64,000 nt of DNA from Leptolyngbyaceae cyanobacterium (GCA_965263355.1 CBDHHL010000032.1:1824001-1888000); one strand, 5' to 3'; counted from the first letter of the stretch, positions 4,832 to 53,703 are shown. The notes: generated from the letters alone by a model not told the origin. Program-made: numbers and translations.

Positions 4832-5152
4832 TTAGTTTGCGTTCCTTTGGCCTGTATTCCCTTGGCCTGTATCATCTTGGTCTCCATTCCCTTGGCCTGC
4901 GTTCCTTTGGTCTGTATCCCCCCCTTGGCCGGCATTCCTTTGGCCTGAGTTGGCTTGGCTTACCTCAATAGGGATATCCCTGGGCTGCATCACATATACA
5001 AAGCCATCAGCCATCGACGGGTCATCTTGGATAGTCTGAATTCGCAGACTATCATTAATTTGGGCAGTCGCCGCCGAATTACCAGCTGCTACAAGCAGTG
5101 AACCCACAACCAAAGCCCCTAGGGACTTAGACAAATAAGACACAGTTACCAT
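4832..5152 (-). CDS. Small secreted hypothetical protein with Gly/Gln/Asn-rich repetitive tail
   Basis: Signal-peptide-like N-terminus ending ATA-Q; C-terminal GQRNAGQG/DQRNAGQG/GQRNAN repeats. Confidence 0.55.
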   Translation of the reverse strand: MVTVSYLSKSLGALVVGSLLVAAGNSAATAQINDSLRIQTIQDDPSMADGFVYVMQPRDIPIEVSQANSGQRNAGQGGDTDQRNAGQGNGDQDDTGQGNTGQRNAN

Positions 5153-6737: not shown

Positions 6738-6963
6738 GTACTTAAGTCCTCATTAGTGGGTGACTATCTTGCTCAATTGCCAAGGATAAAAACATCCTTG
6801 AAAGCAATAGATTATCAGCGTGGACAGGCAAATACCTCAATGTATCTACTATCCAGATTAGGGCCTGTCTGTCTTTAACAGATTTTCCATAGCAAATACC
6901 CAGTCAGGTGATGTTAGTACGTCATCACAAGTGTTTTTAAAGTTTTTTACGGCAGGAGATTCT

Positions 6964-7842
6964 ATGAACCGATATTTAGGTAAACCCTCTTGGTTGTTGA
7001 TGGCTTCTGTAACATCAGGAGTGCTTGCGATCGCAACACCCAGTCAGGCCGCTAGTTTTGCATTTTCGGAAAGCTTATTAGAAGTTGTTTTTGGCCAAGA
7101 GTTCACGGGTAGCGAAGCAGATACGGATGCCGATACATTTGCCATTGCAGATGACGGTGACGTATCAGTGGACGCATTTGCAGACGCCACTATCTTTAAT
7201 GATGCCTCTGGGTTATCTACATGTCTATTTGGCTTAGGTGCTCCCGGTGCTTGCAATGTCGCTCTCAGCGAAGCAATTGGTGATGATGGCAACAACTATT
7301 TTGGCATCGGTGAGAGCACAGCCGAAGTCATTGGTGACTTCTTTGTAGCATCAGGCAACAACTTTAGTTTTGATTTCATTGCTTCACTACTGCTCGAAAC
7401 CAATATTGACCGTCCTGATGTGGAAAGTGCCCAGGCTACTGGAGAGGTCTCATTTGCAATCTTTGGAAGCAGCCAAGCAGAGTCTCTCTCACTTCTAGAT
7501 ACCTTCACACTAGCAGGACAGCTATCAACATTGAGTGAAGACGATAGCCTGACCGAGCCACAAACCAGTAACACATTCGCATTTAATACATTCATTAATA
7601 CCTCCTTTGGAGGACAAAATGAGTTTGTTGATGCTTTGGCGGAAGGCTCCTATAGCCGTACCTTTGACAGTGACACATACTTACAACTGGTGGAAGTAAA
7701 AACCAGTTCTGCTTGTGTAACGACAACGGATAGTGGCCAAAACTGTAACCAGTCAATTCCAGAACCCACTAGTCTACTAGCTTTAATTGCACCACTCTTA
7801 GGCCTAACTGGCATCTCTTTACAAAAAAGAACAAGTCGATAG
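6964..7842 (+). CDS. PEP-CTERM sorting-domain exoprotein, acidic and beta-strand-rich
   Basis: AGGAGA RBS before ATG 6964; signal peptide ending SQA-A; C-terminal IPEPTSLLALIAPLLGL plus basic KRTSR. Confidence 0.85.
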   Translation: MNRYLGKPSWLLMASVTSGVLAIATPSQAASFAFSESLLEVVFGQEFTGSEADTDADTFAIADDGDVSVDAFADATIFNDASGLSTCLFGLGAPGACNVALSEAIGDDGNNYFGIGESTAEVIGDFFVASGNNFSFDFIASLLLETNIDRPDVESAQATGEVSFAIFGSSQAESLSLLDTFTLAGQLSTLSEDDSLTEPQTSNTFAFNTFINTSFGGQNEFVDALAEGSYSRTFDSDTYLQLVEVKTSSACVTTTDSGQNCNQSIPEPTSLLALIAPLLGLTGISLQKRTSR

Positions 7843-7935: not shown

Positions 7936-8106
7936 AATATCTTGTGTCAAGAGTAGGGGCTTGTGCCTGATTTTCTGTCGATCCCTTAGCTATCCCAAAT
8001 TCATCCAGAAATCTGCCAAAATGGCCACCCTCCTCCTAACGAATTGCCTATCTTTATCTCAAGAGCAACAAAAGTTGCTTAAAACACTTTCTAGGAGAGT
8101 TTCAAA

Positions 8107-8322
8107 ATGATTATCAACAATTTAAGCTATCTGGGCGACGTTGCTGACGATACAGCTATCTCTGGTGGTTACTATTACTACCATCCATATAATAGCGCGA
8201 ATGCAAGTGCTTCAGCTGTTGCTCTTGGCTACAATACCAACACCAACACCTATACAAGTGCATCAGTGATTCAAGGCTATCGCTCCTCATCTTATTCCAG
8301 TTCTAACGCCAGTACTAGCTAG
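8107..8322 (+). CDS. Double-glycine-leader secreted small protein 1 (71 aa)
   Basis: AGGAGA RBS; leader MIINNLSYLGDVADDTAISGG; paralogue of 8675-8896; near a C39 exporter. Confidence 0.85.
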   Translation: MIINNLSYLGDVADDTAISGGYYYYHPYNSANASASAVALGYNTNTNTYTSASVIQGYRSSSYSSSNASTS

Positions 8323-8425
8323 CCCACAGTCATAGGTAACATTAAATTCTTCAAGAATGGCTCAAGAGACCACGTATAAGTGGTCTTTCAGTCATTCTTC
8401 TATCTGAATTTCCTTAGAACATGGC

Positions 8426-8474: not shown

Positions 8475-8674
8475 TTTAAATAGATAATAAAAAATAAAAT
8501 TCATCCAAGAATCTGCCAAAATAGCCACATTTCTCTTAGGAATTGATCAGTCAGCGAAATTCGAAATTCATCCAAGAATCTGCCAAAATGGCCACATTTC
8601 TCCTGATAAATTGCCTATCTTTATTTCAGGAGCAACAAAGAGTTGCTTAAAACACTTTCTAGGAGAGTTTCAAA

Positions 8675-8896
8675 ATGATTATCAACGATTTAAGCTATTT
8701 GGGCGATGCCACTAAAGATGCAGCTATCTCTGGTGGTCGTCGTTATTATTACTATCGTCCACGTAATAGCGCGAATGCAAGTGCTTCAGCCGTTGCTCTT
8801 GGCTACAATACTTACACTAGCACCTATACAAGTGCATCAGTGATTCAAGGCAATGGTTCCTCGTCTTCTTCCGGGTCTTACGCAAATGCTTCCTAA
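8675..8896 (+). CDS. Double-glycine-leader secreted small protein 2 (73 aa)
   Basis: AGGAGA RBS; leader MIINDLSYLGDATKDAAISGG; core NSANASASAVALGYNT shared with peptide 1. Confidence 0.85.
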   Translation: MIINDLSYLGDATKDAAISGGRRYYYYRPRNSANASASAVALGYNTYTSTYTSASVIQGNGSSSSSGSYANAS

Positions 8897-9070
8897 TCCA
8901 GGGTGTATGCTTGGAATGTAAATCCTCGAGAGTCGCTGAAAGAATGCTAAAAGTGCCCTTTCAGCGATTCTATTCTTACAGCTAAAAGATTTTAAGTGTG
9001 AGAGTAGATAAGTCCTTCTCGAGGAATTTGCACCTTGAGAAGGACTTATAATCCAACAAGGAGAAAAACA

Positions 9071-9339: not shown

Positions 9340-9372
9340 GTGTCGATGTCGCCACAATAGCAACATCGACAC
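9340..9372. terminator. Hairpin between convergent peptide 3 and hetP-like genes
   Basis: GTGTCGATGT...ACATCGACAC inverted repeat. Confidence 0.55.
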
Positions 9373-9435: not shown

Positions 9436-9771
9436 CTAAGTTCTCCATCTAAGGGATGGTGATTTTGTTTTGTGGAACCATTTTTTCCGGCCTCCACTTA
9501 TGTTTGTTCGAGACGTATCAACTGTCTTTAAGTATTTAAGATCAGAGATTTTCCCAGAGATTTGACAACTATTAGAGTATTGCTTAATAGTAGAGGATTC
9601 TTTCAACAAACTCTCTTGGTGACGGTTTGCTTTCATCAAACGATGATAAGTTCGATAGGGCATATATTGAAGAGGGTTGTGGCCTTCACCACAGAGAAAT
9701 AAAATACAAGCCCAAGAATATTTGCCATCAAGAATTGCCTCAATGACTTCATCAAAGTATGCCTTATTCAT
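9436..9771 (-). CDS. hetP: HetP-family protein (copy 1)
   Basis: FDEVIEAILDGKYSWACILFL...GHNPLQYMPYRTYHRLMK matches the HetP family core motif. Confidence 0.85.
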   Translation of the reverse strand: MNKAYFDEVIEAILDGKYSWACILFLCGEGHNPLQYMPYRTYHRLMKANRHQESLLKESSTIKQYSNSCQISGKISDLKYLKTVDTSRTNISGGRKKWFHKTKSPSLRWRT

Positions 9772-9809
9772 TCGTTGTCTCCAGTGTGTGAGTAGTAAGT
9801 TTTAAGGGG

Positions 9810-10016
9810 CTATTCCACTACATTAGAATGGCTACTGACATGACTGCTAGAATAGCTATGGGTTTGATTTGGAAAGGTTTCAACCTCGACGCTTTGTTGG
9901 TATGTTGTATAACTCTCAGCTTGGTCATCAGAGATAATGACAACGCTGCTTGCTTCGGCAATAACCTGACCATTTTTAGTAATGACGCGTTTTTTAACAA
10001 CTTTTTTCTGTGTCAT
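9810..10016 (-). CDS. Small hypothetical protein (68 aa) in the secretion locus
   Basis: AGGAGA RBS upstream; co-oriented between the PPIase and hetP genes; alternating V/I/S pattern; no GG leader. Confidence 0.6.
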   Translation of the reverse strand: MTQKKVVKKRVITKNGQVIAEASSVVIISDDQAESYTTYQQSVEVETFPNQTHSYSSSHVSSHSNVVE

Positions 10017-10159
10017 TGGTTTATTTCTCCTAATTGGTTGCTGTCTCTGTTTTGTACTATAAATTAGCTTGAAATCAATGCTGATTTACTAAACCTTATT
10101 CACGTCTAGAATAGAAGTCTTCCCCTCAAGGAAGCTATAGGGTGAACCTTGAGCACAGC

Positions 10160-10924
10160 TTAAACTGTCGTTTTCAATATACTTGAATCCAATTCGCTAT
10201 AAAGCAGATGGTTGATCTCTCGTTCTAACCACTCGTCAAATAAATCTTGGATGATTTCTTGTCGAACTTCATTGGTTAGTTGGGCTGGGATAAACGCTTC
10301 AACCATAAACAGATGGTAACTAGACTCTATTGCAAGGGGTCCAATAATTGTCCCTAAGGAAGCACCAAAGATGGCAGCTGCAACCTGGGGTTGCAGGTCC
10401 CAACGAGATAGCTTACCTTCATAACCGCACCGTAATCGACGCTCTGGGTCAGTATCATATCTATGGGCAGCTGCATAAAATGTGATCTCTTTTTCTAAAA
10501 TTTGATAGCAGATCTCTTGCACAACGTGGGGATCGTCAACCTGCAGCTGATAGAGTAAAACCTGATCAAATTGAAGTTTATTTTGTGAGAAATATTTTTC
10601 GACTTCCGAGTCAAATAATACATTTGCTAGCTTTTTCTCTAACAATTTTGAATATATACCCGCTTCCCAGTCGTCAACAGACATTAATTGATCTGCTAGC
10701 CAGACAAACGTATCCGCTGCTTTTTCTAGCTGATATTCGCGACGAAACTGCTCAGCTTCAGCTTGAATTTCTAGAGGTCCGATGGTTAGGTTTTGATTAC
10801 GAGCACTATTCTGAATAACGCGTTGACTCAACAATTTTTGATAGATATTTCTCAGTTGGATTGTTTGTCTAAAATAACTAACAATCTCTTCCGAAGTAAA
10901 GTTGACCTTTGAAAAATCTGCCAT
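10160..10924 (-). CDS. PpiC/SurA-type peptidylprolyl isomerase (T1SS-associated foldase)
   Basis: Helical N-domain (EIQAEAEQFRREYQL) plus degenerate parvulin domain (FYAAAHRYD...CGYEG...IIGPL...YHLF). Confidence 0.8.
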   Translation of the reverse strand: MADFSKVNFTSEEIVSYFRQTIQLRNIYQKLLSQRVIQNSARNQNLTIGPLEIQAEAEQFRREYQLEKAADTFVWLADQLMSVDDWEAGIYSKLLEKKLANVLFDSEVEKYFSQNKLQFDQVLLYQLQVDDPHVVQEICYQILEKEITFYAAAHRYDTDPERRLRCGYEGKLSRWDLQPQVAAAIFGASLGTIIGPLAIESSYHLFMVEAFIPAQLTNEVRQEIIQDLFDEWLEREINHLLYSELDSSILKTTV

Positions 10925-11179
10925 ATTTCAGAGTCTTTTAGGTAAATAACTCTTATGTATATCCAAAATCGTAACATGCCTGTAAAAGCAGCAATCGGCT
11001 TCAACAAGATTCAGGCAATTCAATGGGAAATTCCTAGAAAAGGTTACACATTCATATCAATAATCCAGAGTCAATGTGCAGCATATACAAACAAATAGTT
11101 CGTATTTCTGAAGAATAGCTTGAGCCCAACAAGAAATCAGGCCATTTTGGCCTAATGTATATTTTGTAACAAAAATCCT

Positions 11180-11228
11180 AAAAAAATGATACTCAAACAG
11201 GTTGCAAAGAACAGCTGTTTGAGTATCA
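11180..11228 (-). terminator. Intrinsic terminator downstream of hetP copy 2
   Basis: TGATACTCAAACAG / CTGTTTGAGTATCA 14-bp arms; A-run at 11180-11186 gives a U-tail on the minus strand. Confidence 0.75.
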
Positions 11229-11271
11229 AAGCTAAAGCATTAGAAAAGATATAACCTGTTCTTGGAGCGGC

Positions 11272-11604
11272 TCACCGCGATTTGATACCTAAGCGGGGTA
11301 TACAAAATCTTGAACGAATTCGTCTGGGCTGAAATCCACCTTGTACAGAACGACTACTATGGTGACTGCTTTCTAAGTGTGATAAGTCTACAATTTTTGG
11401 TCTATGTCTATGGTTTTGGCTCTTCAAAGTAGTATTGTCGCCCCGCTTATATCCTGTCTGTTGTTGTCTAAGTAAGCGATTATAAGTACGACACGGGATG
11501 TATTCTTTGGGGTTATATCCTTTTTCACGTAGCCATAATACACAAGCCCATGAGTATTTACCCTCTAAAATGGCTGTCATCACATCATCTGACTGCTTAT
11601 CCAT
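11272..11604 (-). CDS. hetP: HetP-family protein (copy 2)
   Basis: AILEGKYSWACVLWLREKGYNPKEYIPCRTYNRLL motif. Confidence 0.85.
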   Translation of the reverse strand: MDKQSDDVMTAILEGKYSWACVLWLREKGYNPKEYIPCRTYNRLLRQQQTGYKRGDNTTLKSQNHRHRPKIVDLSHLESSHHSSRSVQGGFQPRRIRSRFCIPRLGIKSR

Positions 11605-11760: not shown

Positions 11761-13098
11761 TTATAAGTTAAGTCCTCCTTTTTGTAACTGCTTAAAGGGA
11801 TCAATCAAGATATCGATGATTCGACGTTGACGAATACTAATATCAACGGTAGCCGTCTGTCCCGGTTTAAATTGTTTGATTCCTTTTTCTGTTTCCAATC
11901 GGTTTGTTGAGAGGGCAATTTCTAGTTCATAAACATCCCCCAAGATGTCATCTTTGACGGTACCAGGGGCAACCTTCTCTACACTCCCGTCAATAACGCC
12001 ATAGTCTTGAAATGGATAGGCATCAAATTTAATCCGGGCAGCCATCCCTTGTTGTATAAACCCAGCATCTCGGTTAGCAAGCTTGGCAGATAACACTAAT
12101 GGGGCTCCCTCAGGCGCTATTTCAGCAATAGCCTGTCCCGCCTGTACAACTTCATCGGGATTGGCAATATTAAGGGCAAGGACCACACCATCAACAGGGG
12201 CCATTAGGGTGCTATGGGCTAATTTGGTGCGAGCCCCTTGCAGTTGAGTCTCAGTTTCAAAAATGTTAGCTTTGAGCTGGGTTATTTCCACCTTTAGCTG
12301 TTGCAGGCGTTGTTGGATTTCTAATATATGGCGTTGCCCTTCCGCTTGTTTTTGTGTTTGTTCTGCACCTAAACGCCTGATTTCTGAAAGCTGCTCTCGC
12401 AAATTGCCCTGTTGTTGAGTCATGGTTTGCTGGCGTACTAGCAGAGATTGCTCTGCGTCAAAAAAATATTCTTTGGAAATTGCACCATTTTCCTTTAATG
12501 AATTTAATCGTTGAATGCGGTCTTTATGGGCTACAATTTCTGCCTGAATTTGCGCTATTAACGCTTGTGTAGTATCTACATTGGATTTAACCCGTTCAAT
12601 GGCTGCAGTGTGGGCCAGGGTATCGGCCTGGACGCCTGCCTGACGAGTCTGCATTTCTATATGGGTTTGTTCGACTAATGCTTGAGTTTGACTAAGTTTC
12701 TTTTGGGCCGCCTTTAATACTTGTTCTAATCGCTCAATTTCATTCTGATCAAGTCGATCATCTAGTTGAAGCATCACTTGTCCAGCTTTAACCAAATCCC
12801 CTTCTTTGATAAAAATATCTGATACCTTGCCCTGTTGAATAGGCATAACTTTGTAAGCTTCACCTTGGGGAACAAGCTTGCCGCGGGCAGAGCTGACTTC
12901 TTCGACTTTGCCGACATAGGCCCAGATTCCAAATGCAAGGCAAAAGCCTATGCCGCCTGCAAGTAGACGATAGGGGAGTTGTGCAGGGGGGCGATCTAAG
13001 GTTGATTGTACAGCTAGGGACCAGGTGGCAGCTGTGGCCTGGTCAGGTGATGATATCGATTTATGGGGAAAATCGGGGGCATTCGAGAAATTTGTCAT
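11761..13098 (-). CDS. HlyD-family type I secretion membrane-fusion protein
   Basis: N-terminal TM, ARGKLVPQG, long coiled coil, APVDGVV, KFDAYPFQDYG, DPFKQLQKGGLNL end. Start likely 13098 (ORF track starts at 13140). Confidence 0.92.
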   Translation of the reverse strand: MTNFSNAPDFPHKSISSPDQATAATWSLAVQSTLDRPPAQLPYRLLAGGIGFCLAFGIWAYVGKVEEVSSARGKLVPQGEAYKVMPIQQGKVSDIFIKEGDLVKAGQVMLQLDDRLDQNEIERLEQVLKAAQKKLSQTQALVEQTHIEMQTRQAGVQADTLAHTAAIERVKSNVDTTQALIAQIQAEIVAHKDRIQRLNSLKENGAISKEYFFDAEQSLLVRQQTMTQQQGNLREQLSEIRRLGAEQTQKQAEGQRHILEIQQRLQQLKVEITQLKANIFETETQLQGARTKLAHSTLMAPVDGVVLALNIANPDEVVQAGQAIAEIAPEGAPLVLSAKLANRDAGFIQQGMAARIKFDAYPFQDYGVIDGSVEKVAPGTVKDDILGDVYELEIALSTNRLETEKGIKQFKPGQTATVDISIRQRRIIDILIDPFKQLQKGGLNL

Positions 13099-13222
13099 AG
13101 GGATACGCTCTGAAGATAGGGGCTTTGAAAATGGAGGCACTGAATAGTGCAGTGATTATCAATTTTTTTCATTCGAGGGACAGAGCAAAATAAGCGTTAA
13201 ACCTTAAGAAATTGCCCATGGC

Positions 13223-16200
13223 TTAGCCCATGAGCTGTTGTTGGGCTAAATAGTAGTAAAGCCCTTGTTCTGCAATCAACTGATCGTGGTTGCCCTGCTC
13301 CACTAAAATGCCTTGGTCCAGGACAAGAATGCGATCCACCTGGCGTACCGTTGATAACCGATGAGCAATGATAAATGTAGTATGGTTACGACTCAGCTGG
13401 GCCAGGTTATGTTGAAATCGACGTTCTGATTCAGTGTCCAGAGAGCTGGTTGCTTCGTCTAAAATCAGTACCCGAGGCTTTCCGAGCAGTGCCCGCGCAA
13501 TGGCAATCCGCTGTCGTTGCCCGCCTGAGAGGGTAGCTCCTCGCTCTCCTACCTTGGTGTTGTAACCCAGGGGTAAGGCTTGGATAAAGGTATGGGCTTC
13601 GGCTAGCTTAGCAACCTCAACAACATCATCAATTGTATAGTTGGGCCGATATAATGTAATGTTGTCCAGAATCGTTCCAGAAAATAGAAAACAGTCTTGG
13701 GGAACCACACCTAGTTGCGATCGCAACGAATGGGGAGCAATATGTCGAATATCATGACCATCAATCAAAATACGCCCGCTACTTGGTTGGTATAACCCCT
13801 GTAGTAAACTAATGAGTGTTGTTTTCCCTGAGCCACTGCGTCCTACGATAGCAACGGTTTCTCCAATGGGCACCTCAAATGATACATTTTGCAGGATATT
13901 CCGCTCTTCATCTTCTGCATAACGAAAGGTAACATTGTCGAGCCTAATCTGCCCCTGAATGGAGGGAAGTTGCAGCATAGTTTCCTGGGCCGCTTCCTCA
14001 GGCTTGGCAGAAAAAATATCATTGAGGCGTTCTACAGAGATTGTTATCTCCTGAAACTCGTCCCATAAACCAACGAGTGCTAAAACAGGTCCAATTACAC
14101 TGCCAATCAGCATGTTAAATGCAAAAAATTGCCCAATAGTCAGCTGATCCTGGATAACGAGATAGGCCCCATACCAAATTAAAGCAGTACTGCCCAGGGA
14201 ATGAATAACGCCACTGGATGCCTGCAGGGCATTCGCTAATTTTTGACCATGAAATCGGGCATTGAGCAGTTCAATCAAGTCATTTTCCCAACGCCATCGA
14301 GTTTCTTGTTCAACAGCAACTGTTTTGATCGTACCAATACCCGCCATGATTTCGACTAAAGTAGAATTTTCCTTCGCATCGGCATTAAAAATCCTGCGAG
14401 AGACTCGTCGTAGTAGAGGCGTGGCTCCAACGGCTAGCAACGCAATTAACGGGATAAAGACCAATACTACTAAAGTTAAATGCCAGTTGTAATAGGCCAT
14501 TAGCCCAATATAAACAACCATCATCAAGACATCTAGCCATACAATTATCAACTGTCGCGTAAGAAATAACTGAATTTTCTGTCCTTCCTCAACTCGGGTT
14601 GTAATATCACCCACATGGCGAAAGTCAAAAAACTTTAAGGGTAACCTCAACGTATGTTGTACAAACCCACTGAGTAATGAGAGGTCTAAACGATTGGAAA
14701 AGTAATCCAATAAATATTGGCGCACGGCGGTTAACCCAATTTTCCATAGGCCAAATAATAATAGACCCATGGCAAATACATTTAAGGTAACAACGCTGCG
14801 CTGTACCACTACCCGGTCCAGAATAACCTGTGTAAACAAGGGGGTGACTAATCCAAAAATCTGAATAAGTAGGGATGCCAGGATGATTTGAACAATCAGA
14901 TTGCGGTAAGGCCATAATAACCTCAATAGATTGCCCAGAGACTGTTGATTCTCAGTGGATAATGATTGTAATCGTGCAGTTGGTTCCAACAGCAGGGCAT
15001 ATCCAGTCCAACCAGCCAAAAAGTCTTGACGCTGGAGCCATTTACGTCCCTTTGCCGGATCCGCAACCAAAATACTTCTATGATGAATCTGGTAGACCAC
15101 AATATAGTGATTACCTTGCCAGTGAGCCACAAAGGGACCTTGTATTTGAGATAGGCGATCCAAACTAGCACGGACTGGTTGAGCATCAAATCCAACCTTT
15201 TCGGCAGCCCTCACCAGTCCCTTCAGGGATGTTCCCTCACGACTGGTACCTGCGAGTTCTCGTAGCACGTTTAACCCTATTTGTTTGCCCCAATATTGGG
15301 CCACCATGGCTAAACAAGCGACCCCGCAATCTGCCGTACTTTGCTGTTCAATAAAGGGAAACCCATGCCACGGTCGCCGACCTCGATATCGAGGCTGAGG
15401 AAACTCAACCACCGTTTTTTTAGCTAATTCCAATCCAGAAGCACTTGAGTCCAATGGAGTCAGTGATTGATGCGGCTGTCCAACCCTATTGTTAAGCTGA
15501 CTAATATTGGTCGTGTCCGCCTTGAATCCACGCTCCTCTGAACTACTCTTCTTCAGACCATTTGAAACTAGTTTGGAGTCCGAGGCGTGTAAAAATGGAA
15601 AGCGTGTCCACTGGTGCTGAGGTAGACTGTAAACCAACAAGGTTTCTTGAGCCACCCAGTCGTTTGAAACTGGTTGAGGATAGCCCCAATCATCACCTGG
15701 CAGTAATAATTTATGGCCACCGTGGGAGAGTTGAATACGGCCTTCTTTGAGCCAAAAATGACTGGTACTTCCTAACTCAGCTAACCGCTGTTGAGGCTCC
15801 AGCTGTTGTTGCTGACAAGCCGTGGCAAAGGATTCTAGCTCGTAACTACTCAACTCTTGCAGAGAAGTCATAGTTTTAAAGAAAATCAGCTTTTCACGAT
15901 GCTGAGCTTGAGTTTGTAAATATGTTTTCAGATCTGATAGCTGGTCAATCCAACGTTGAAGCACAGTTAACGGCATATATGCGGCCTCAACATTGCCAGC
16001 CGCTACAACCCGATAGGGCATGGCATGATTGCCCAGAATAGGTTCTGCCCCAAAGGTATCACCGCTCTCCAGGGATTGCACAGGGGTCTCCCCCATCTCC
16101 CCAGATTTAGCAATAATTCGGGCACGACCACAACATATTATGTAGAAACCTTTACGTTCTCTGTGATAGACCGATTGTCGAGACTCTCCCCCATATATAA

Positions 16201-16327
16201 ATAGTTCATCTCCCATCCTGTACTTACAACTTTGAAAGGCTCGATTGAAATCAGCAGAAATCCCTGGTTTTATATCTACATCAATGAGTGCAGAGATATC
16301 AAAAGGTACAGTAGAAAAGTAATTCAT
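13223..16327 (-). CDS. HetC-like peptidase-containing ABC exporter (cNMP-binding-like domains + C39 + ABC membrane + ATPase)
   Basis: C39 motifs QQSTADCGVACL, HWQGNHY, ADPAKG; Walker A GRSGSGKTT; LSGGQRQR; DEATSSLD; N-terminal cNMP-like GFYIICCGRARI...GDTFG. Confidence 0.93.
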   Translation of the reverse strand: MNYFSTVPFDISALIDVDIKPGISADFNRAFQSCKYRMGDELFIYGGESRQSVYHRERKGFYIICCGRARIIAKSGEMGETPVQSLESGDTFGAEPILGNHAMPYRVVAAGNVEAAYMPLTVLQRWIDQLSDLKTYLQTQAQHREKLIFFKTMTSLQELSSYELESFATACQQQQLEPQQRLAELGSTSHFWLKEGRIQLSHGGHKLLLPGDDWGYPQPVSNDWVAQETLLVYSLPQHQWTRFPFLHASDSKLVSNGLKKSSSEERGFKADTTNISQLNNRVGQPHQSLTPLDSSASGLELAKKTVVEFPQPRYRGRRPWHGFPFIEQQSTADCGVACLAMVAQYWGKQIGLNVLRELAGTSREGTSLKGLVRAAEKVGFDAQPVRASLDRLSQIQGPFVAHWQGNHYIVVYQIHHRSILVADPAKGRKWLQRQDFLAGWTGYALLLEPTARLQSLSTENQQSLGNLLRLLWPYRNLIVQIILASLLIQIFGLVTPLFTQVILDRVVVQRSVVTLNVFAMGLLLFGLWKIGLTAVRQYLLDYFSNRLDLSLLSGFVQHTLRLPLKFFDFRHVGDITTRVEEGQKIQLFLTRQLIIVWLDVLMMVVYIGLMAYYNWHLTLVVLVFIPLIALLAVGATPLLRRVSRRIFNADAKENSTLVEIMAGIGTIKTVAVEQETRWRWENDLIELLNARFHGQKLANALQASSGVIHSLGSTALIWYGAYLVIQDQLTIGQFFAFNMLIGSVIGPVLALVGLWDEFQEITISVERLNDIFSAKPEEAAQETMLQLPSIQGQIRLDNVTFRYAEDEERNILQNVSFEVPIGETVAIVGRSGSGKTTLISLLQGLYQPSSGRILIDGHDIRHIAPHSLRSQLGVVPQDCFLFSGTILDNITLYRPNYTIDDVVEVAKLAEAHTFIQALPLGYNTKVGERGATLSGGQRQRIAIARALLGKPRVLILDEATSSLDTESERRFQHNLAQLSRNHTTFIIAHRLSTVRQVDRILVLDQGILVEQGNHDQLIAEQGLYYYLAQQQLMG

Positions 16328-17542: not shown

Positions 17543-18152
17543 CAGCAATTCCAAATTCCAACTTAAGAACAGAAATCAGTATCCTGGAGCTAGCAATCGA
17601 GTCGTGCAAAGCGTAACCCTATCGGGTACAGTCAACTCATTCGGATGGGTCTTGCCTTGGGCAAGATAGTCGTTATGGCTTCAAGTGTGCTCAGTTTCGA
17701 CAGTTTGCTAGGAGGACTGACCTCGTGCATAGGAACGATGAAGGATGGGCGTCAGCCCAGTAACGCAACTCGTTATAGCCTTCAAGATGCAGTGCTGGGA
17801 GCGTTTAGTGCGTTTTTCATGCAAAGCCCGTCATTCCTCAGCAGTTCCAAATTCCAATTTACAGACATCTGAAACCCTTGATTTTCCGTTGGAATTGAGT
17901 TCACTCAGGTTTAGGGGGAGGGGCATAGTCAAGCGAAGGAGTTGGCTAGCTACTCCTCTATTTCGAAGATTGAGTCACAGGAATTAACTGATGGAAAGAA
18001 AACGACCATACCCTCAAACCTTTATAAATCAGGAGCTTTGCCTGGACTAGATATGCCTCTGAAAGTCTTCTAAAGTCTTTTTTAGCAAGGGTTTCACCCT
18101 TCTTGGGGCAGGCCAGCGCAGGCTGTCCTAAAGTTGGAATTTGGAATTGCTG
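17543..18152. mobile_element. Defective ISNCY-like element with terminal inverted repeats and a truncated transposase
   Basis: CAGCAATTCCAAATTCCAACTT at 17543-17564 and its exact reverse complement at 18131-18152. Transposase N-terminal fragment MASSVLSFDSLL...RQPSNATRYSLQDAVLGAFSAFFMQSPSFL is cut by a third end copy at 17839-17860. Confidence 0.8.
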
Positions 18153-18153
18153 A

Positions 18154-18312
18154 CGACAACTTTACCGAGATATTGAAGACGGACTTCTCAGAATCGGAAT
18201 AGAAGTCGAAGACCGGAGACGACCAGGCACGAAAAAGGCACGGTATTACATCAACATTCCTGCCACGAGAAAACGACTTAATTGCGCACCTGAGAAACGG
18301 AAGGTGGTTTAG
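18154..18312 (+). pseudogene. C-terminal remnant of a small basic DNA-binding (excisionase-like) protein
   Basis: RQLYRDIEDGLLRIGIEVEDRRRPGTKKARYYINIPATRKRLNCAPEKRKVV*; no start because it is cut by the TIR; convergent with and overlapping the integrase 3' end. Confidence 0.5.
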
Positions 18313-19384
18313 GGCCGCCTGCAATCGCACTGTGATAGACCGCCTGCTGTTCAGCGGCAGATAGCCATCGCTGATAGGTCTCAGTATGGACCTTAACCGA
18401 GTGCCCCATCATACGAGCTGCAATACTGACTGGGATATTAAACTTGATGCACCGAACCGCAAAAGCATGACGAAGGTCATACGCTAGAAACGGCACCTTA
18501 TAGGTTCTGAACTTTTTAGATAATATCTTTCCGTATTTTCTAAACTCTGGATATTTAAGCGGTGGCGGATTGCCCTCCCCTATCCTCCACTTTGCAACCC
18601 ACTCTGGATAGAGCGCAGAAACTTGGCGATACCCCGTTTTTCCATCAGTAACGTTCCAGATAAGCGGGTCAGGCGTTGGTTCTAAAAAGAACGCTTCATG
18701 AGGACGAACCCCAAAGGTTGAGATCGCAGCATAGACCCACTGCCATGCAGGGTCAGGAAATATATTCCACCACTCCTCTATCAGTTCATCAGCAGGTAAA
18801 TCCCTTCTTGCTTCAGAGCGTCCTGGCGCATAGCTTCCACCATGAGGACGTAAATCAATCTGAATCTCAGCAAACTCAGCAAGTCGCTGAAAGTACCGCA
18901 TAGTGCGCTTTCTGGTATAGGTACCAACATCAGTCTCAAGGAGTATGTTCAGCAGTATATCTCCAGTAAGCGGCTTATCCTGTGGCAGGCGTTTGTATGC
19001 TGCTCCCCAATGCTGATGCCAGGTATCTTCTGTGGTAATGCCCTTTGATAACCAGTGCTCACGAAACTCAGCTATCCATTCTTTTACGGTTCTGTCCTCA
19101 CGAGATACTTTTCCTCGCCAGGTATCCCACTCAAAGCTTCCATCAATCACACTTCCCCAAAGTGAGATCGCAACTTTCTCAGCATCTTTTAATCCACGAG
19201 TCGTTGCAGGAAGTCCAACCTTAGGTCGCGTTACTTCCTGACGGTACGCCTTTACTTTGTCAGATTCAGGTTTTGGAGGAAGCACAGCTCTTAAATACAA
19301 CCATTGCTTTCGCTGAAGAATGGTGACTCTAATTCCGGAGTCACGTAACCGGCTATTTACTCCTGAAAGGTCTACTTGTTCCAT
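18278..19384 (-). CDS. Site-specific tyrosine integrase/recombinase (cyanobacterial type)
   Basis: N-terminal LYLRAVLPPKP; catalytic R (GVRPHE), K (DGKTG), HxxxxR (YDLRHAFAVR), MGHS and Y (HTETYQRW). Confidence 0.9.
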   Translation of the reverse strand: MEQVDLSGVNSRLRDSGIRVTILQRKQWLYLRAVLPPKPESDKVKAYRQEVTRPKVGLPATTRGLKDAEKVAISLWGSVIDGSFEWDTWRGKVSREDRTVKEWIAEFREHWLSKGITTEDTWHQHWGAAYKRLPQDKPLTGDILLNILLETDVGTYTRKRTMRYFQRLAEFAEIQIDLRPHGGSYAPGRSEARRDLPADELIEEWWNIFPDPAWQWVYAAISTFGVRPHEAFFLEPTPDPLIWNVTDGKTGYRQVSALYPEWVAKWRIGEGNPPPLKYPEFRKYGKILSKKFRTYKVPFLAYDLRHAFAVRCIKFNIPVSIAARMMGHSVKVHTETYQRWLSAAEQQAVYHSAIAGGPKPPSVSQVRN

Positions 19385-47328: not shown

Positions 47329-49719
47329 TTAGATTAAACTCCTAAGGGTATTGAGAAGTAGACTTTGGTCGAAATCACCTTTGGTGATGTAAGCATTGGC
47401 TCCAGCGTCAGTACCACGCTGTTTGTCTTCATCTTTAGCCAATGTCGTAACTAAAATAATGGGTAACTTTTCGTATTTTGCCTCCTGTCGAATGCGAGTG
47501 GTTAACTCCAAGCCATTAAGATTGGGCATTTCTACATCAGATACTACTGCATTAAATGACTCTTCTTCCTGAAGTTTGTTCAACCCATCCAAGCCATCTG
47601 CAGCAGCTGTAACTTGATAGCCCGCTCCCTCTAAAATCCGTTTCACCTGAGTCCGAATTGGAATAGAGTCTTCCACTAATAATACTTTAGGAACAGAAAT
47701 AGTCTTTTCCAATGTGGGAATTACTAAATCGCCTTTACAACCTCGAAGTGATTTAAGTAAATCTTGGGGGCTCAGCACCATACAGACTTCCCCATTTCCT
47801 AAAATAGTAGCACCTGCAATGTTACGTACATGCTTAAGCAACTTACTATGGGGCTTTAAGACAATATCCTGTTGATCCACAAGGGTATCAACAAATAGCC
47901 CTAATCGCTCTGAGCCAACTTTGAGAACCACACAAGGCATTGATTGTTTATACTCATTGGGTTCGGCCTGTGTTGCAACAGATTTTGGTAGCTCCAATAG
48001 ATCGGTTAGCCAGACAACGGATAGGGGATTGTTTTGAAATGTAATGGTGGGATTGCCCTCAAGTTTAAATATATCCCCAGGGGCAACCCGCATCATCATA
48101 TCGATAGATTCTACGGGAATCGCATAGGATGTTTGATTGACCCCCACAATTAAGGCTGAGGCCGTTGCTAAACTCTTATTGAGGATAAATCGGAACGCAC
48201 AACCTTGAGCTGGTTCAGACGCAACTTCAATAGAGCCCTTCAACCGTTCAACATTGACACGAACAACATCCAAACCAACACCTCTACCAGAAATTTCGGT
48301 TACACTTGTACGTGTAGAAAACCCCGGCATAAAAATGAGTTCGTGAAGTTGCTCATTACTCATTTTTTCTAAGTCTTTTTCATTGTATAGTCCGCGTCGT
48401 ATCGCTGTTCGCTTAATGGTTTCTACACTGAGCCCACGACCGTCATCAATGACTTCAATACCGATATGACTACCCTGCTGATACGCTTTGAGGCATATGG
48501 TTGCTGTGGGGGGTTTACCCATGGCAATGCGCTCACTGGGTGTTTCAACACCATGGTCAATGGCATTGCGGATCAGGTGAGTCAGCGGAGCCTTCATCTC
48601 TTCTAAGATGCGTTTATCTGCCTGGGTATCGCCCCCTTCAATCACTAAATCGATGGTTTTCCCCTGTTGTTTAGCCAAATCCCTCACCATACGTGGGAAA
48701 AGACTAAACATACTGGATAATGGTAACTGACGTAGTTTGAGAATACCCGATTCTAAGTCATTAGAAAGGGTCTCTAACTGGGCAGAGTCTTCATAAGAAC
48801 TACTTCTAAGTTGCTTTAAGAGATCTCCTAATTGATCTAGACGGTCTTCTGTAGTTTGTTGTAAGGCCTGTATAGGTGCTAGGGCTTTAGATGTTAGCTG
48901 GGGGGCGTCGAGATTATCAATGGCTAAACGCTGGGCTAAACTATCACGGACCCAGCTTTCCCAAAATAGAAGCACCTTATCAATGTCATCCATCCGACGA
49001 TTAATCCGCCGTTTGGTCACAGCTAACTCACTGGCTTGAGTCATTAAGGCATCGAGCTTTGGTGCTTCAACCCGCACAGTATCAATTTGATAAGTATCAC
49101 CAACGATAGGCTCAGGCTGCTGAGATAGCTGAGGAACTTCGGGGGAGTCTACAGCGGCGGGTACAGGTTGTTTCCCATTAGTCGCTATATCAAGTTCTCC
49201 CACTGCTGATGACGCAGTTAATGAGGTAATAATAGCAGTCGTATCACTTGAGTCATGGCCAGCATCACTGGGAGCCCATTCCAGCATAGCCCGTTCCTCA
49301 GCAGCTGGCGCAATCTCACCAAAATCTTGATCCGAGGATTCCCCAGCATCTACCAACTGGGCCATCACATGGAAAATACTGATATTGGAGGGCTCACCCG
49401 TGACAGCTTCATGGGCGATTTTACGCACCGCATCTAATCCTTGATAGAGACAATCGCAGAATGAAGGCGTAATCTGTCGCTCACCTTGTTCCACACTGCT
49501 TAGTAGGGTTTCTAACTGATGCGTTAAGGTCTCCGCATCCTTTACCCCGAGCATACGTGAGTCCCCCTTTAAGGAGTGGGTCGCTCGCAATAGATCTTTT
49601 AGTTTAGCCGGGTCATCTGGATGTTTCTCTAAATAGAGCAATCCTGCTTCTAATTTGTCTAAATGGTCTTTACTAGCATCTCGATAGAGCGTGCGTAGTT
49701 CTTCATCTTCGATAAACAT
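47329..49719 (-). CDS. cheA: Hybrid CheA histidine kinase (Hpt-dimerisation-HATPase-CheW-REC)
   Basis: RATHSLKGDS, HLIRNAIDHG, DDGRG, GFST, SGRGVGLDVV, C-terminal receiver. Start MFIEDEE at 49719. Confidence 0.93.
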   Translation of the reverse strand: MFIEDEELRTLYRDASKDHLDKLEAGLLYLEKHPDDPAKLKDLLRATHSLKGDSRMLGVKDAETLTHQLETLLSSVEQGERQITPSFCDCLYQGLDAVRKIAHEAVTGEPSNISIFHVMAQLVDAGESSDQDFGEIAPAAEERAMLEWAPSDAGHDSSDTTAIITSLTASSAVGELDIATNGKQPVPAAVDSPEVPQLSQQPEPIVGDTYQIDTVRVEAPKLDALMTQASELAVTKRRINRRMDDIDKVLLFWESWVRDSLAQRLAIDNLDAPQLTSKALAPIQALQQTTEDRLDQLGDLLKQLRSSSYEDSAQLETLSNDLESGILKLRQLPLSSMFSLFPRMVRDLAKQQGKTIDLVIEGGDTQADKRILEEMKAPLTHLIRNAIDHGVETPSERIAMGKPPTATICLKAYQQGSHIGIEVIDDGRGLSVETIKRTAIRRGLYNEKDLEKMSNEQLHELIFMPGFSTRTSVTEISGRGVGLDVVRVNVERLKGSIEVASEPAQGCAFRFILNKSLATASALIVGVNQTSYAIPVESIDMMMRVAPGDIFKLEGNPTITFQNNPLSVVWLTDLLELPKSVATQAEPNEYKQSMPCVVLKVGSERLGLFVDTLVDQQDIVLKPHSKLLKHVRNIAGATILGNGEVCMVLSPQDLLKSLRGCKGDLVIPTLEKTISVPKVLLVEDSIPIRTQVKRILEGAGYQVTAAADGLDGLNKLQEEESFNAVVSDVEMPNLNGLELTTRIRQEAKYEKLPIILVTTLAKDEDKQRGTDAGANAYITKGDFDQSLLLNTLRSLI

Positions 49720-49818
49720 GATCTCTTTGGTTGGATAGGGTAGATGGGGTGAGATGGGCATACACTCTACCCCAATGAGAACCTTAAACTGTTGTGAACT
49801 ATGGGCGCAAAGCTATGA

Positions 49819-51177
49819 TTAGACGGCAACTCGTAGTTCTTGTGCAATAGTCTGCAGTTCTTTGGTGGAGTTTTGTACCTCACTCACCGCAGTCACCGTT
49901 TCCTTTGCTCCCAGGTTAATGGTGTTCATGGCTGAAACTACCTGCTGTACTCCCACCGCCTGTTGCTTAGCCGTTTGGGCAATTTGTTGCGAGTTTTCAT
50001 AGACTTCGCTAATTGCATTGGCAATCTGGCTAAATACATTAGCTGTATTTTGGGCAGTTTCAATACCCACTTTTGCGGTTTTGTTGCCCTCGTCCGTCAC
50101 CATGACCGTAGAATTAATTGAAGTCTGAATAGCTTCTACCAGAGTGCCAATTTTACCGGCTGAATCACGACTTTGGTCAGCCAACTTTCGAATTTCACCT
50201 GCAACCACTGCGAAACCTTTACCTTGTTCACCGGCTCGAGCTGCCTCAACCGCTGCGTTTAGGGCTAACATATTCGTTTGGTCGGCGACGTCTGCCACCA
50301 GGCCTGAAATTGTCGAAATTTGGTCGGTTTGTTCACTGAGCTGCATAATCTGATCTGCGATCGCACTCACCTTGTCTCGCAGGTCCTCAATTTCCTGCAC
50401 CGTGGTTTCCACCGCCTGACTTCCGGTTTCCGATAGGGTGAGTGCTTCGCGGGCACCTGTTGCCGAAGAATCTGCCTTTTGAGCCGCTTGCAGTGATGCA
50501 GCTCCCAAGGATTCAATGGTAGATGTTGTTATATTCACAGAATCCGTTTGTTCTATTACCGCCCGCTCCTGGGCTTCTACCGTAGCGGCAATGTTGGCAG
50601 AACTTTCAGACACCGTTGACACTGATTTTTGGAGTACCTTTGAAGCTTGGTGAATACTCCAAAATACGAATCCTAATATCGCGATGTCCAGAATCAAAAA
50701 TGCTAACTGGGAATTACTTACTTCCTTAATGTGCGCTGTTGTAAAGTTCTCTGCTGCCTCTGCAGCTATATTGGCATCGTCAAAAAATTGTTCACTGTCA
50801 CTGAGCACCTGAGCCTTTAGATTTGGATTTTGGCGATATTGCAGAATATCTGACTTTAGTGTTTGCCAATCACTCTCAACCTGCTCCATTGCAGCTACAA
50901 ACGCTGGATCCTTCTGCTTATGCAACTTTAATTCTTCATCACCGTTAACCAGGCCATTAATGACCTTATCGATTTCGGCTATCAGTGCATCATTGGGTTG
51001 TCCATTAGTTTCCAGTTTTACTAATCGTTGAGTAGCTCCGCGAACAAAACCCGTTTTGTTCACCGCACTTCCATCAAAAACACCCTCATTAGTTCGAAGG
51101 TTTTCAAAAATAGTTATACCAATGGTAAAGGCAGCCAGTCCAGCAATGGTGTATTTTAGCTGGTTAGTAATTTTCAT
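49819..51177 (-). CDS. Methyl-accepting chemotaxis protein with PilJ/NarX-like periplasmic domain
   Basis: Two TMs; [15 protein letters not shown]; signalling hairpin [34 protein letters not shown]. Confidence 0.9.
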
Positions 51178-51244
51178 GGAATCACTCCTAAGTTGTATTT
51201 AAGACAATATGGGTAGAGAAGTTATGCTGCTTGTAGCTCTGGGG

Positions 51245-52342
51245 TTAAGCTGTCTGATCTACAAGTAAACCTCCCTGGGAGAAGACCTTAGAAAGATCAA
51301 GAATACTCAAGCTTTTTTGGTGATATTGAGTTGCTCCTTGAAAAAATGCTTGAGAATGCTGAGATAATGCAGCGGGCATCGCTGAAATCTCTGAGAGAGG
51401 AAGATAAACAACATCCAGAACCTGATCAACCGTAATACCAGCGACAATATCATCAACCTCAATAACGACAGCCTTAGACGCTTGGGCAACTGTTTGGGCA
51501 AGGTTCAAGGTCTCTCGAATATCAATTAGAGTCATGATATCTCCGCGCAAATTAATGTTGCCCATAATGTGAGATGGGCAACAGGGAATGGGCTGAACAC
51601 GACGAATATTAATAAATTCTTGTATCTGCCCTAGCTCTAAACCAAAGTATTCGTCTGCCAGCTTGATTACAGCTAGGGGCATTAATTTATCACTATTAGA
51701 ACTCCCTGCTAATGCGTGACGTAGCTTGACAGCACGCTGTTGAAAAATAGCTTGTTCTTCTAATGTACTATTGGGACAGTAAAGTGAGAAAAAATTAGTC
51801 AAAACAGGTATTGGTTGCGCATCAAACACCTGTTCCTCGGGATAGGCCTTAGCACTGTCATCCTCTTCTATATTGTCAAGGTTAGCTTCCCAGACCATCA
51901 TGGCCACTTCATCCGTTTGGCGAATCAAGGACTCTGGATTGAGCAAGAGAATTAAATGATCATCAACCTTAGCCACCCCTGATGCGAATGCCGAATGCAC
52001 TGATTGTCTAAATTCATAGGTTGGTGCCGCTTCAATTATAGAAGGTGGCAGGGTTTGTACATCATGAACCCCATTAACCACCATTCCAATTTGTATTCCC
52101 TGCCATTCAATCACAATGACACTATCGCTTACCTGGCAAGTTGGCATATCTTGCCCCAAACGTTTAGCAAGGTGCATTACTGGCAAAATGGCTCCTCGCA
52201 AATTGAGGATACCGATGATGTCCCCCGGTGCATCAGCCATTGGTGTTAGCTCGGGGAGCTGAAAAATCTCTCGAACCTGGTCCGTTTTGAGACCGTACTG
52301 TAGGTCATTTAGTTCAAAAATTAAATAGGTTTGGGTTTCCAT
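51245..52342 (-). CDS. cheW: Tandem CheW-domain protein
   Basis: Two CheW repeats (GILNLRGAILPV; GNINLRGDIMTLID). Confidence 0.9.
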   Translation of the reverse strand: METQTYLIFELNDLQYGLKTDQVREIFQLPELTPMADAPGDIIGILNLRGAILPVMHLAKRLGQDMPTCQVSDSVIVIEWQGIQIGMVVNGVHDVQTLPPSIIEAAPTYEFRQSVHSAFASGVAKVDDHLILLLNPESLIRQTDEVAMMVWEANLDNIEEDDSAKAYPEEQVFDAQPIPVLTNFFSLYCPNSTLEEQAIFQQRAVKLRHALAGSSNSDKLMPLAVIKLADEYFGLELGQIQEFINIRRVQPIPCCPSHIMGNINLRGDIMTLIDIRETLNLAQTVAQASKAVVIEVDDIVAGITVDQVLDVVYLPLSEISAMPAALSQHSQAFFQGATQYHQKSLSILDLSKVFSQGGLLVDQTA

Positions 52343-52366
52343 GATGATCGATTAACAATGAACTCT

Positions 52367-53614
52367 CTACGATATAACTGTGCTAGGAATATATTTTTCT
52401 AATACTTCCAGTAATTTTGGACGGTCAACGGGTTTAGTTAAATAGTGGGTTGAGCCTACGATTTGACCTCTGAGTTTGTTAAACATTCCATCTTTAGCAG
52501 TCAGCATCACAATCGGAAGATCCCGAAACCTACCAATACTCCGAACGGTGCGACAAAGCTCTAGTCCGTCGATATCAGGCATTGTTACGTCCAACAGCAT
52601 TAGTTCGATTTTTTCTTTATTTAGCAGGCTGAGTGCATCCATCGCATTGCTTGCCAGTAGTACATGATAGTAGTCACCAATGGCGCGTTTAATCATTGTC
52701 TGCACTACTGGACTATCATCAACACTGAGAATGGTAGGGCGATTCTCAGTGACTTTGGCAACAATAGGAGCTGGCGGATCAGGAATTGTTTCGACCAGCC
52801 CATTGATGTTGATTTTCTGTGGATTAATGATTTTTTGTGAGTCATTAACAACCGTTTTTGGCGAATTCTCAATGGTGGATAGATACTTAGTTTGTTCAAA
52901 TGTAAGCCAGCCCATTTGCACAAATTTGAGATATTTATGGGCTAATTCCAATGGATCCAGGTTGATTTGGCTTGCTATTTCGTAAAGTGTTTGCTGGCCA
53001 TCGATCCACTGGGGCAAATGTTGTCGTGCCCAATCATCAGTGATAGTTTGATGGCTATGCAGAAGCTGATAGGGAATTGCATTGACAGAAGGAATGGTAT
53101 CGGCTAAGGATGCCCATACCTGCTGTCGCTGCATCATATCTTGCTCTAGTGGCTCCCAAGTAAACCCATGACAGTCTTCTCCATAGGCAAGATCAATAGA
53201 AATAGACGTATTTACGGTTAGTTTTCCTGCATAGGGAAAAATACGTTCTAATATCAAGATGACTTGTTTTCGAATATATTTTTCAACATCTTGCCAAGTA
53301 AATAGTTTAAGACGAACAAAAAGCTCTAGATGTTTACGTATAGAAGTCTGATCGTCGAGCCGTTTCTTAGCTAGCTGCAAAGCTGTTCTCATAATTTCTA
53401 AGTCGAAATGCTTTCCCAGCGCTTGTGAGAACGTTATTGGTTCCGGTAATGATAATCCGCAGTAGGTGAGTTCTCCATTGTGCCACACAAAAACCGTAGA
53501 ACGATTGTTATTTAGGACATTGGGAAAGGTTTCTATATAGGTAACCCCACTAAATTTCTTGTATTGCAGGTCTAAAATTACATCGCCTAAGTGATTAGCT
53601 TCAAATCGCAACAT
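52367..53614 (-). CDS. PatA-family response regulator (N-terminal PATAN-like + REC)
   Basis: C-terminal ILSVDDSPVVQ, LLDVTMPDIDG, MLTAKDG, YLTKP; paralogue of 53704-54891. Confidence 0.85.
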   Translation of the reverse strand: MLRFEANHLGDVILDLQYKKFSGVTYIETFPNVLNNNRSTVFVWHNGELTYCGLSLPEPITFSQALGKHFDLEIMRTALQLAKKRLDDQTSIRKHLELFVRLKLFTWQDVEKYIRKQVILILERIFPYAGKLTVNTSISIDLAYGEDCHGFTWEPLEQDMMQRQQVWASLADTIPSVNAIPYQLLHSHQTITDDWARQHLPQWIDGQQTLYEIASQINLDPLELAHKYLKFVQMGWLTFEQTKYLSTIENSPKTVVNDSQKIINPQKININGLVETIPDPPAPIVAKVTENRPTILSVDDSPVVQTMIKRAIGDYYHVLLASNAMDALSLLNKEKIELMLLDVTMPDIDGLELCRTVRSIGRFRDLPIVMLTAKDGMFNKLRGQIVGSTHYLTKPVDRPKLLEVLEKYIPSTVIS

Positions 53615-53703
53615 TAATACTTTCCTATAGAAACTTTAGAAGGGTAAAAGACTTTTTCTTGACGCTGGTCATATAATGATTTAAGAAATGACACTAACAC
53701 TCT

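Follow-up and report, generated by a model that had tools for sequence, protein, structure and literature searches.

HetP proteins share the leader motif of neighbouring double-glycine precursors, and the motif tracks a HetC-type C39 exporter across cyanobacteria

The 64,000-nt stretch from a Leptolyngbyaceae cyanobacterium analysed here (GCA_965263355.1, CBDHHL010000032.1:1824001-1888000; hereafter the window) carries a cluster of two HetP-family genes, a HetC-related ATP-binding cassette (ABC) exporter that contains a C39 peptidase domain and three small double-glycine precursors. Both HetPs contain, internally, the leader motif of the precursors. The main genes and motifs are (aa, amino acids):

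8107..8322, plus strand: MIISDL-type double-glycine precursor 1; leader 21 aa, core 50 aa rich in Ser/Ala/Tyr/Asn
8675..8896, plus strand: MIISDL-type precursor 2; leader 21 aa, core 52 aa
9071..9331, plus strand: MIISDL-type precursor 3; leader 24 aa, core 62 aa rich in Ala/Gly/Val/Ser
9436..9771, minus strand: HetP-A, 111 aa; HetP domain at residues 3-61 (three helices), disordered linker, motif and 17-aa tail; NF037966
9490..9552, minus strand: HetP-A internal motif, K74-G94, 27.4 bits; putative cleavage, predicted after Gly94
10160..10924, minus strand: PpiC/SurA-like rotamase-domain protein (family scans)
11272..11604, minus strand: HetP-B, 110 aa, immediately 3′ of hlyD; NF037966, 20-aa tail
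11335..11397, minus strand: HetP-B internal motif, K70-G90, 30.6 bits; predicted cut after Gly90
11761..13140, minus strand: HlyD-family periplasmic adaptor (TIGR01843, over cut-off)
13223..16327, minus strand: long-type peptidase-containing ABC exporter, a HetC relative, with cyclic nucleotide (cNMP)-binding domain, C39 (~14969-15367), transmembrane domain and nucleotide-binding domain

The minus-strand genes, running from the exporter through hlyD, hetP-B, the rotamase gene and a 68-aa open reading frame (ORF) to hetP-A, converge on the three plus-strand precursors, of which 1 and 2 form a tandem duplication of ~570 bp, promoter included (7992-8326 vs 8559-8900, 84-90% identity). HetP-A and HetP-B score 82.9 and 78.2 bits against an NF037966 cut-off of 45, and the exporter has an intact C39 active site (Gln/Cys/His/Asp) together with its transmembrane, nucleotide-binding and cNMP domains. 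The same gene set, including two HetP copies, is found in Leptothoe sp. PORK10 BA2 (L001), and both locus and protein comparisons identify Leptothoe/Leptolyngbyaceae as the closest relatives of the window. These relatives are not known to form heterocysts, so the system in the window is most likely an ancestral export cluster and not part of heterocyst commitment itself.

A preliminary description of the window had proposed that both HetPs carry the leader motif of the precursors, and this is what we observe: both ORFs are present, and a two-block profile built on 89 HetP motifs from other genomes, run over all six frames of the window, reaches at least 14 bits at exactly five sites, namely the motifs of the two HetPs and the leaders of the three precursors (30.6, 27.4, 25.1, 24.7 and 20.8 bits). 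None of 3000 shuffles of the post-domain region reached the observed score for either HetP. A further 670,978 positions, taken from 1,608 other long ORFs, gave six matches of at least 20 bits, each of them a HetP or a MIISDL precursor. The motif is conserved in HetP orthologues, including alr2818 of Anabaena.

HetP motifs and MIISDL leaders have in common the conserved I, D, L, Y/H, L and E, a hydrophobic residue at -4 and the GG, in the general form I-x-D-L-x-Y-L-E ... V/I-x-G-G. GG or GA at -2/-1 and the hydrophobic -4 are as in canonical double-glycine leaders (LahT/ComA type), while the short-helix pattern of that type is not found, a hydrophobic residue being rare at -7 (2% of 89 HetP motifs, 7% of 74 leaders) and present at -12 in 24% and 28%, respectively. 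The 74 leaders were picked with the HetP profile, but in 66 of them the motif block begins at residue 3, a position that was not imposed. Because the same residues are conserved and the hydrophobic -7 is missing in both, the HetP motif is, judged by sequence, the non-canonical leader of the cluster’s MIISDL precursors, one distinct leader class being common to cargo and HetP. Compared with the LahT150-type leader and its C39 protease (PMC6363468; of this and the other papers cited by PMC number we draw on the available parts), the likeness extends to Gly-Gly at P2-P1, hydrophobic -4 and the Cys/His/Asp protease; the HetP site differs in lacking the hydrophobic -7, in having conserved residues at -20, -17, -15, -14 and -11, and in being internal, ~70 residues into a folded regulator.

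The MIISDL precursors form a family of 79 ORFs in ~31 loci, matched by no Pfam or NCBIfam model; Atlas look-alikes of precursor 2 are unnamed cyanobacterial clusters (0.93-0.94). Their cores are rich in Ser (15%), Ala (13%), Thr (9%) and Gly (9%), with Cys, Trp and Met nearly absent, and look more like EbfG-type matrix proteins than bacteriocins. In the EbfG1-4/PteB system of Synechococcus elongatus (PMC4997328, PMC9981879), small GG precursors with low-complexity cores are likewise cut and exported by a C39 transporter; the available text of these papers mentions no HetP, and a matrix or amyloid role of the window cores would be an analogy with EbfG (see also PMC12267927).

To follow the motif across the phylum, 201 cyanobacterial genomes were searched with a domain-only HetP model, which avoids selection for the motif. 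There were 46 positive genomes with 98 matches; with three proteins from genome G005 added and identical sequences collapsed, 98 proteins in ~19-kb loci were compared (this and the co-loss counts below omit 80 loci and 150 proteins biased to motif-bearing HetPs). A C39 exporter lies nearby for 32/36 motif-positive HetPs (at least 20 bits) vs 14/62 motif-negative ones (Fisher 1e-10, kinship ignored), where ‘nearby’ (~9.5 kb) also counts remnants and a second exporter type. MIISDL precursors occur in 17/44 loci with C39, the window included, vs 2/52 without, and both of the latter have HlyD adjoining hetP. By these sequence criteria the HetP motif behaves evolutionarily as a site dependent on a HetC-type exporter.

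The second exporter type is found in Nostocales (L090, L095, L166, L178, L179, L181 and L184) beside short motif-less HetP paralogues; these loci further contain a rotamase, a 200-aa ORF that is conserved, and precursors whose I-x-D-L ... D-L ... GG leader is longer. An ORF of 157-195 aa recurs in Nostocales directly 5′ of, or overlapping, the hetP start (L090:8083-8703, L097, L098, L117).

In two unrooted trees, a quick one from 126 rows of C39 domains and a FastTree one from 116 rows of longer exporter sequence, the Nostocales HetC clade connects to the remaining tree via exporters that keep HlyD and MIISDL precursors (L075; L033, Aliterella), and Stigonema hetC retains hlyD. The window exporter lies outside the HetC clade proper, grouping with those of L001 and L038 among HlyD-linked exporters. 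Taking the second exporter type as outgroup, the sequences place HetC as derived from a full export cluster; unlike the window exporter, HetC forms a derived clade mostly without hlyD. The HetC-HetP pair of Anabaena/Nostoc PCC 7120 has the same exporter architecture and family and an adjacent hetP with the same motif (alr2818), whereas the window keeps hlyD, rotamase and precursors and has two HetPs with short basic tails.

Sampling of 131 heterocyst-family genomes gave 127 with a hetP match, of which 125 were examined (G243 and G249 left out) and 122 classified, three unclear cases being set aside. hetC status was called from a genome-wide search (clear E-value gap) plus synteny; five ‘intact’ calls are contig-split genes and that for G217 was made without the upstream side. 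Gly-Gly is kept in 57/65 genomes with intact hetC, 6/16 with a hetC remnant and 2/41 without hetC. At P2-P1 the intact group has GG 57, GA 2, GS 1, GR 3, SG 1 and one truncation; the remnant group GG 6, GG with the upstream block deleted 1, GS 3, SG 1 and five truncations; and the group without hetC GG 2, GA 2, GS 9, six truncations and 22 others. If GA and GS are counted as cleavable, the figures are 60/65 vs 22/57. Many new stop codons appear at -8 to +13 of the site after hetC loss, while the HetP core (AILxGKYSWAC...PYRTY positions) is near-invariant with or without hetC. Since hetC lies ~1.5 kb or more upstream and the site is at the 3′ end of hetP, a shared deletion fails to explain the co-loss.

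With rpoB at hand for only 35 loci, the tree was made from hetP DNA (309 nt) without the motif columns. On it, Dollo reconstruction infers 17 hetC losses, with 13 GG losses on 2.17 units of hetC-lost branch vs five on 8.83 units of intact branch (rate ratio ~10, p=2e-6); the result is stable over 300 bootstrap trees (11-14 events, p<=6e-7). hetC fragments and frameshifted copies 5′ of hetP (L028:5875, L065:5050, L112:7437, L114:8177, L098:4515-7833, L074:6027) record recent independent losses in Nostoc and relatives. A published case of a heterocyst-former without hetC is Cylindrospermopsis (PMC2821919).

The preliminary description had cast HetP as a possible substrate, decoy or feedback sensor of the HetC-like peptidase; the conserved motif and its exporter-dependent evolution fit all three. 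Were the motif a docking site or pseudo-substrate, HetP would sit in the C39 groove and be cut rarely if at all, being kept at the membrane or throttling the exporter. After hetC loss the I-K-D-L-x-Y-L-E block does outlast the glycines (D 0.93, Y 0.88 vs G 0.42 and 0.21), two HetP copies occur in the clusters of both the window and L001, and HetP-GFP and HetC-GFP both gather near heterocyst poles (PMC4133259). However, the scissile glycines are invariant or nearly so family-wide and show the closest link to hetC (rate ratios 15.8 and 9.8). Gly-Gly would be superfluous in a decoy, and in PMC4133259 HetP-GFP localisation is unaffected in hetC-p. We therefore regard docking without cleavage as improbable.

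Structure prediction bears on how the C39 domain would meet the motif. The HetP-A model has three confident helices at residues 3-61, with a predicted local distance difference test score (pLDDT) of ~90 over residues 1-50 that is low past 60; the motif lies on this low-confidence arm, so a cut site there would be accessible. Modelling of a C39-HetP complex, a check proposed in the preliminary description, scored 0.44 for C39 with HetP-A 68-104 vs 0.01 for the best control; runs agree to at least 90% with partner pLDDT of at least 56, although the prediction may echo memorised solved C39-leader complexes. Of the solved pairs 116/157 reached the score mark, as did 2/215 mismatched ones, and those at or below 0.60 comprise only 18 solved pairs and both mismatches; we take the model as weak support for binding.

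The C-terminal tails bear on whether the peptide beyond the site could itself be the product. The preliminary description had expected cleavage to release cationic tails, which holds as a local trait of the window HetPs (basic tails of 17 and 20 aa) but fails for the family: among 96 tails, 1-88 aa long (median 20), seven have a net charge of at least +4 and 40 are net negative, and conserved cationic tails are rejected. Among Nostocaceae with intact hetC the tail is rather well conserved, at ~36 aa with conserved W, Y-Q and K-F-C, and erodes after hetC loss (at least 25 aa in 55/65 hetC-intact genomes vs 15/57 others).

This conservation, together with the reported essentiality of the HetC ATPase (PMC10986499), keeps alive the reading of HetP as a long-leader precursor whose C-terminal tail, cut and exported, is active as a signal or bacteriocin-like peptide. 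Trp occurs in 68/96 tails, and conserved leaders with variable cores are typical of this precursor class (PMC3140520). Yet outside Nostocaceae tails range over the full 1-88 aa with either charge sign, nine hetC-intact genomes have tails of 4-20 aa, and the supposed leader is the most conserved, functional part, which motif-less paralogues retain alone. Export of an active tail thus appears unlikely, although less so than docking. Regulator trimming fits better than signal export, given the variable, dispensable tails, the position of hetP downstream and the truncations after hetC loss; with a tail so variable and often shortened, the likely purpose of a cut would be to change the state of the N-terminal domain, not to release a peptide.

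The HetP motif itself, and with it the central part of the finding, is already in print: Wang, Fewer and Sivonen (2011; PMC3140520), who define group II clusters, report ‘KIXDLXYLEX10GG from HetP proteins’, alr2818 included, and the motif is repeated in 2015 (PMC4558948). Group II clusters resemble that of the window in their long C39 exporter with N-terminal nucleotide-binding domain, HlyD, SurA/rotamase, HetP with KIxDLxYLEx10GG and arrays of small GG precursors. In the available text these papers treat HetP as a bacteriocin precursor and tie its motif tentatively to an M16 peptidase, leaving identity with the neighbouring leaders or a link to HetC unstated. The HetC papers, in the available text, do not pick the motif up either. 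An M16 gene, which Wang 2011 uses as a group II criterion, was not found in a Pfam scan of 44 proteins of the window, so that in the Wang 2011 scheme the cluster falls between groups I and II.

Cutting by another protease such as M16, or descent of the motif from an old precursor-gene fusion with no present link to the exporter, would agree with the non-canonical spacing, with M16 genes in group II clusters (PMC3140520) and with HetP motifs that do not co-vary with local leaders. Against M16, that Pfam scan found none, nor did a crude regular expression in 34 loci with MIISDL precursors, and M16 genes are reported in just two Subsection V genomes, though each genome there had a motif-bearing HetP (PMC4558948). 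A relic, for its part, would not be expected to show phylum-wide conservation and decay specifically on hetC-loss branches. We judge this explanation, in either form, the least probable of those considered. The literature searched, with few subscription journals covered, yielded no paper that connects the HetP motif with cleavage by HetC, or that reports the co-loss or the palindrome described below. New relative to it are the equation of the motif with the cargo leader, its tracking of a C39 exporter, the HetC grouping with dependence of the Gly-Gly on hetC, and the palindrome.

A conserved promoter element supplies a possible point of regulation. The sites in the window, all candidate operators, are:

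8014..8026, plus strand: TGCCA-N3-TGGCA-type palindrome 5′ of precursor 1, with a -10-like box after it; 23.7 bits
8514..8526, plus strand: second, weaker copy 5′ of precursor 2; 16.6 bits
8581..8593, plus strand: palindrome 5′ of precursor 2; 23.4 bits
11140..11152, minus strand: operator-like site 5′ of the rotamase gene, found in L001 too; 12.5 bits

These four copies were scored with a matrix trained without the window. The palindrome TGCCA-N3-TGGCA lies ~100 nt 5′ of precursor starts and is followed ~22 nt later by a TAnnnT box; palindrome and box together precede 44/79 precursors in 27/31 loci, vs 0/395 shuffles and 22/961 other genes. Spacing of this kind resembles that of class II activator sites, for example those of NtcA. 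A generic sigma-70 scan was at chance level (12 vs 10.9). An exact pattern occurs in 44/46 HetP-positive genomes vs 15/55 HetP-negative ones of at least 3.4 Mb (kinship ignored), whereas the density of control patterns is equal in the two groups. Because no other recognisable regulator is encoded in the cluster (Pfam and NCBIfam scans of the window proteins), HetP is a candidate palindrome binder or co-activator on the basis of this co-occurrence. In 89/125 Nostocaceae loci (e.g. L195, L224, L237) a palindrome promoter lies within 700 nt 3′ of hetP; no conserved ORF was found behind it, bar one precursor-like ORF in G240 (L287), and this orphan promoter may drive patC, a rotamase gene or a non-coding RNA.

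We propose that, in what we take to be a group II peptide-export cluster, the C39 exporter, with HlyD, would remove the non-canonical leader from the three small precursors and secrete their cores, as family knowledge suggests. The HetPs, whose disordered arm after the helical domain holds an internal copy of this leader, would be bound by the exporter’s C39 domain and cut after Gly-Gly, and trimming would alter the state of the N-terminal HetP domain instead of releasing a defined peptide. Exporter activity would thereby be coupled to expression of its own cargo, acting, in the most speculative step, at the conserved promoter palindrome. Heterocyst-formers would have retained hetC and hetP while mostly shedding hlyD and the precursors, which makes HetP the leading candidate for a HetC substrate. 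Rescue of peptidase-less hetC by extra hetP (PMC4133259) places HetP downstream of HetC.

It is probable that the internal motif truly serves as a cut site of its cognate C39, binding and cleavage being strongly suggested by co-evolution. For the wider claim, that the exporter protease trims HetP and so links export to gene expression, we consider the case evenly balanced, the direction of effect being, like binding and cutting, what we infer. That HetP is the physiological substrate of HetC, with hetC-less lineages carrying a naturally ‘pre-cut’ HetP through stop codons at or near the site, is more tentative still, and we would not yet favour it.

Several observations weigh against this interpretation. 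Strictly independent pairs on well-supported branches number eight (four same, none opposite, four tied; median p=0.125) and are underpowered; Dollo counting inflates events at reversible columns (L123 scored 18), and the tree rests on hetP itself. Two of 13 variable N-domain control columns (K23, V35) also evolve faster after hetC loss, truncations alter several columns simultaneously, and in one clade GG and tail erosion started while hetC was still intact. Eight of the 65 hetC-intact genomes lack GG, and HetCs extracted from these keep C/H/D. Locus-specific co-variation of HetP motif and local leaders is absent (26 loci, p=0.45; 24 loci, p=0.63), HetP motifs resembling local leaders no more than foreign ones, and the motif lacks the Leu-7/Leu-12 that LahT requires (PMC6363468). 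The catalytic Cys/His, ATPase and cNMP domain of HetC are essential for heterocysts (PMC10986499, 2024), and simple trimming would not obviously need the ATPase. The second hetP copy that fully rescues peptidase-less hetC is hetP-sfGFP (PMC4133259); uncuttable in hetC-p, it still restores heterocysts, which makes cutting less than strictly necessary, provided that neither extra dosage nor the fusion masks the tail. As to the operator step, HetP is described as a nonspecific DNA-binding protein that enhances, or is needed for, sigma-HetZ occupancy (PMC13342950), and its model has no fold match backing sequence-specific DNA binding (no Foldseek match at E<=0.001, best VIA-align Z 4.8; no usable match beyond PF28069 in an Atlas search).

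The remaining features of the cluster are:

9340..9372, strand not assigned: terminator-like hairpin separating convergent precursor 3 and hetP-A
9810..10016, minus strand: conserved leaderless 68-aa Val/Ser-rich ORF, with homologues in eight further distinct loci

Members of the 68-aa ORF family (57-81 aa) have a basic N-terminus, an S-P-D-G-K-type turn and a Ser-rich end, and are confined to loci with MIISDL precursors (window, L001, L049, L059, L075, L108, L121, L172, L175); the family is a candidate chaperone or nucleator. Directly 5′ of the precursor array, 6931-7842 (plus strand) encodes a PEP-CTERM-like protein with a weak EDSAP-1 match under the cut-off. A tyrosine-recombinase-like gene (18278-19384, minus strand) ~2 kb past the exporter and the broken transposase-like ORFs near 17600-18000 may delimit an island. 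Elsewhere in the window lie a 106-aa protein that looks secreted, matches no family and has at its end a short repeated unit of the Q-R-N-A-G-Q-G type (4832-5152, minus strand), and a chemotaxis-like operon comprising CheA, a methyl-accepting chemotaxis protein, a double CheW and two large response regulators (47329-54891, minus strand).

Finding the substrate of HetC has been named the next crucial step in a study which states that it found near hetC no gene encoding a double-glycine leader (PMC10986499). hetP, the neighbour of hetC, has an internal double-glycine leader, so that an exact bond becomes testable as the HetC target, and it is this direct testability that gives the motif its interest. 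If the proposed cleavage occurs, it could explain the rescue of hetC mutants by extra hetP and the existence of heterocyst-formers lacking intact hetC (57 of the 122 classified), and it would mean that a peptidase-containing ABC transporter regulates a cytoplasmic transcription factor by proteolysis.

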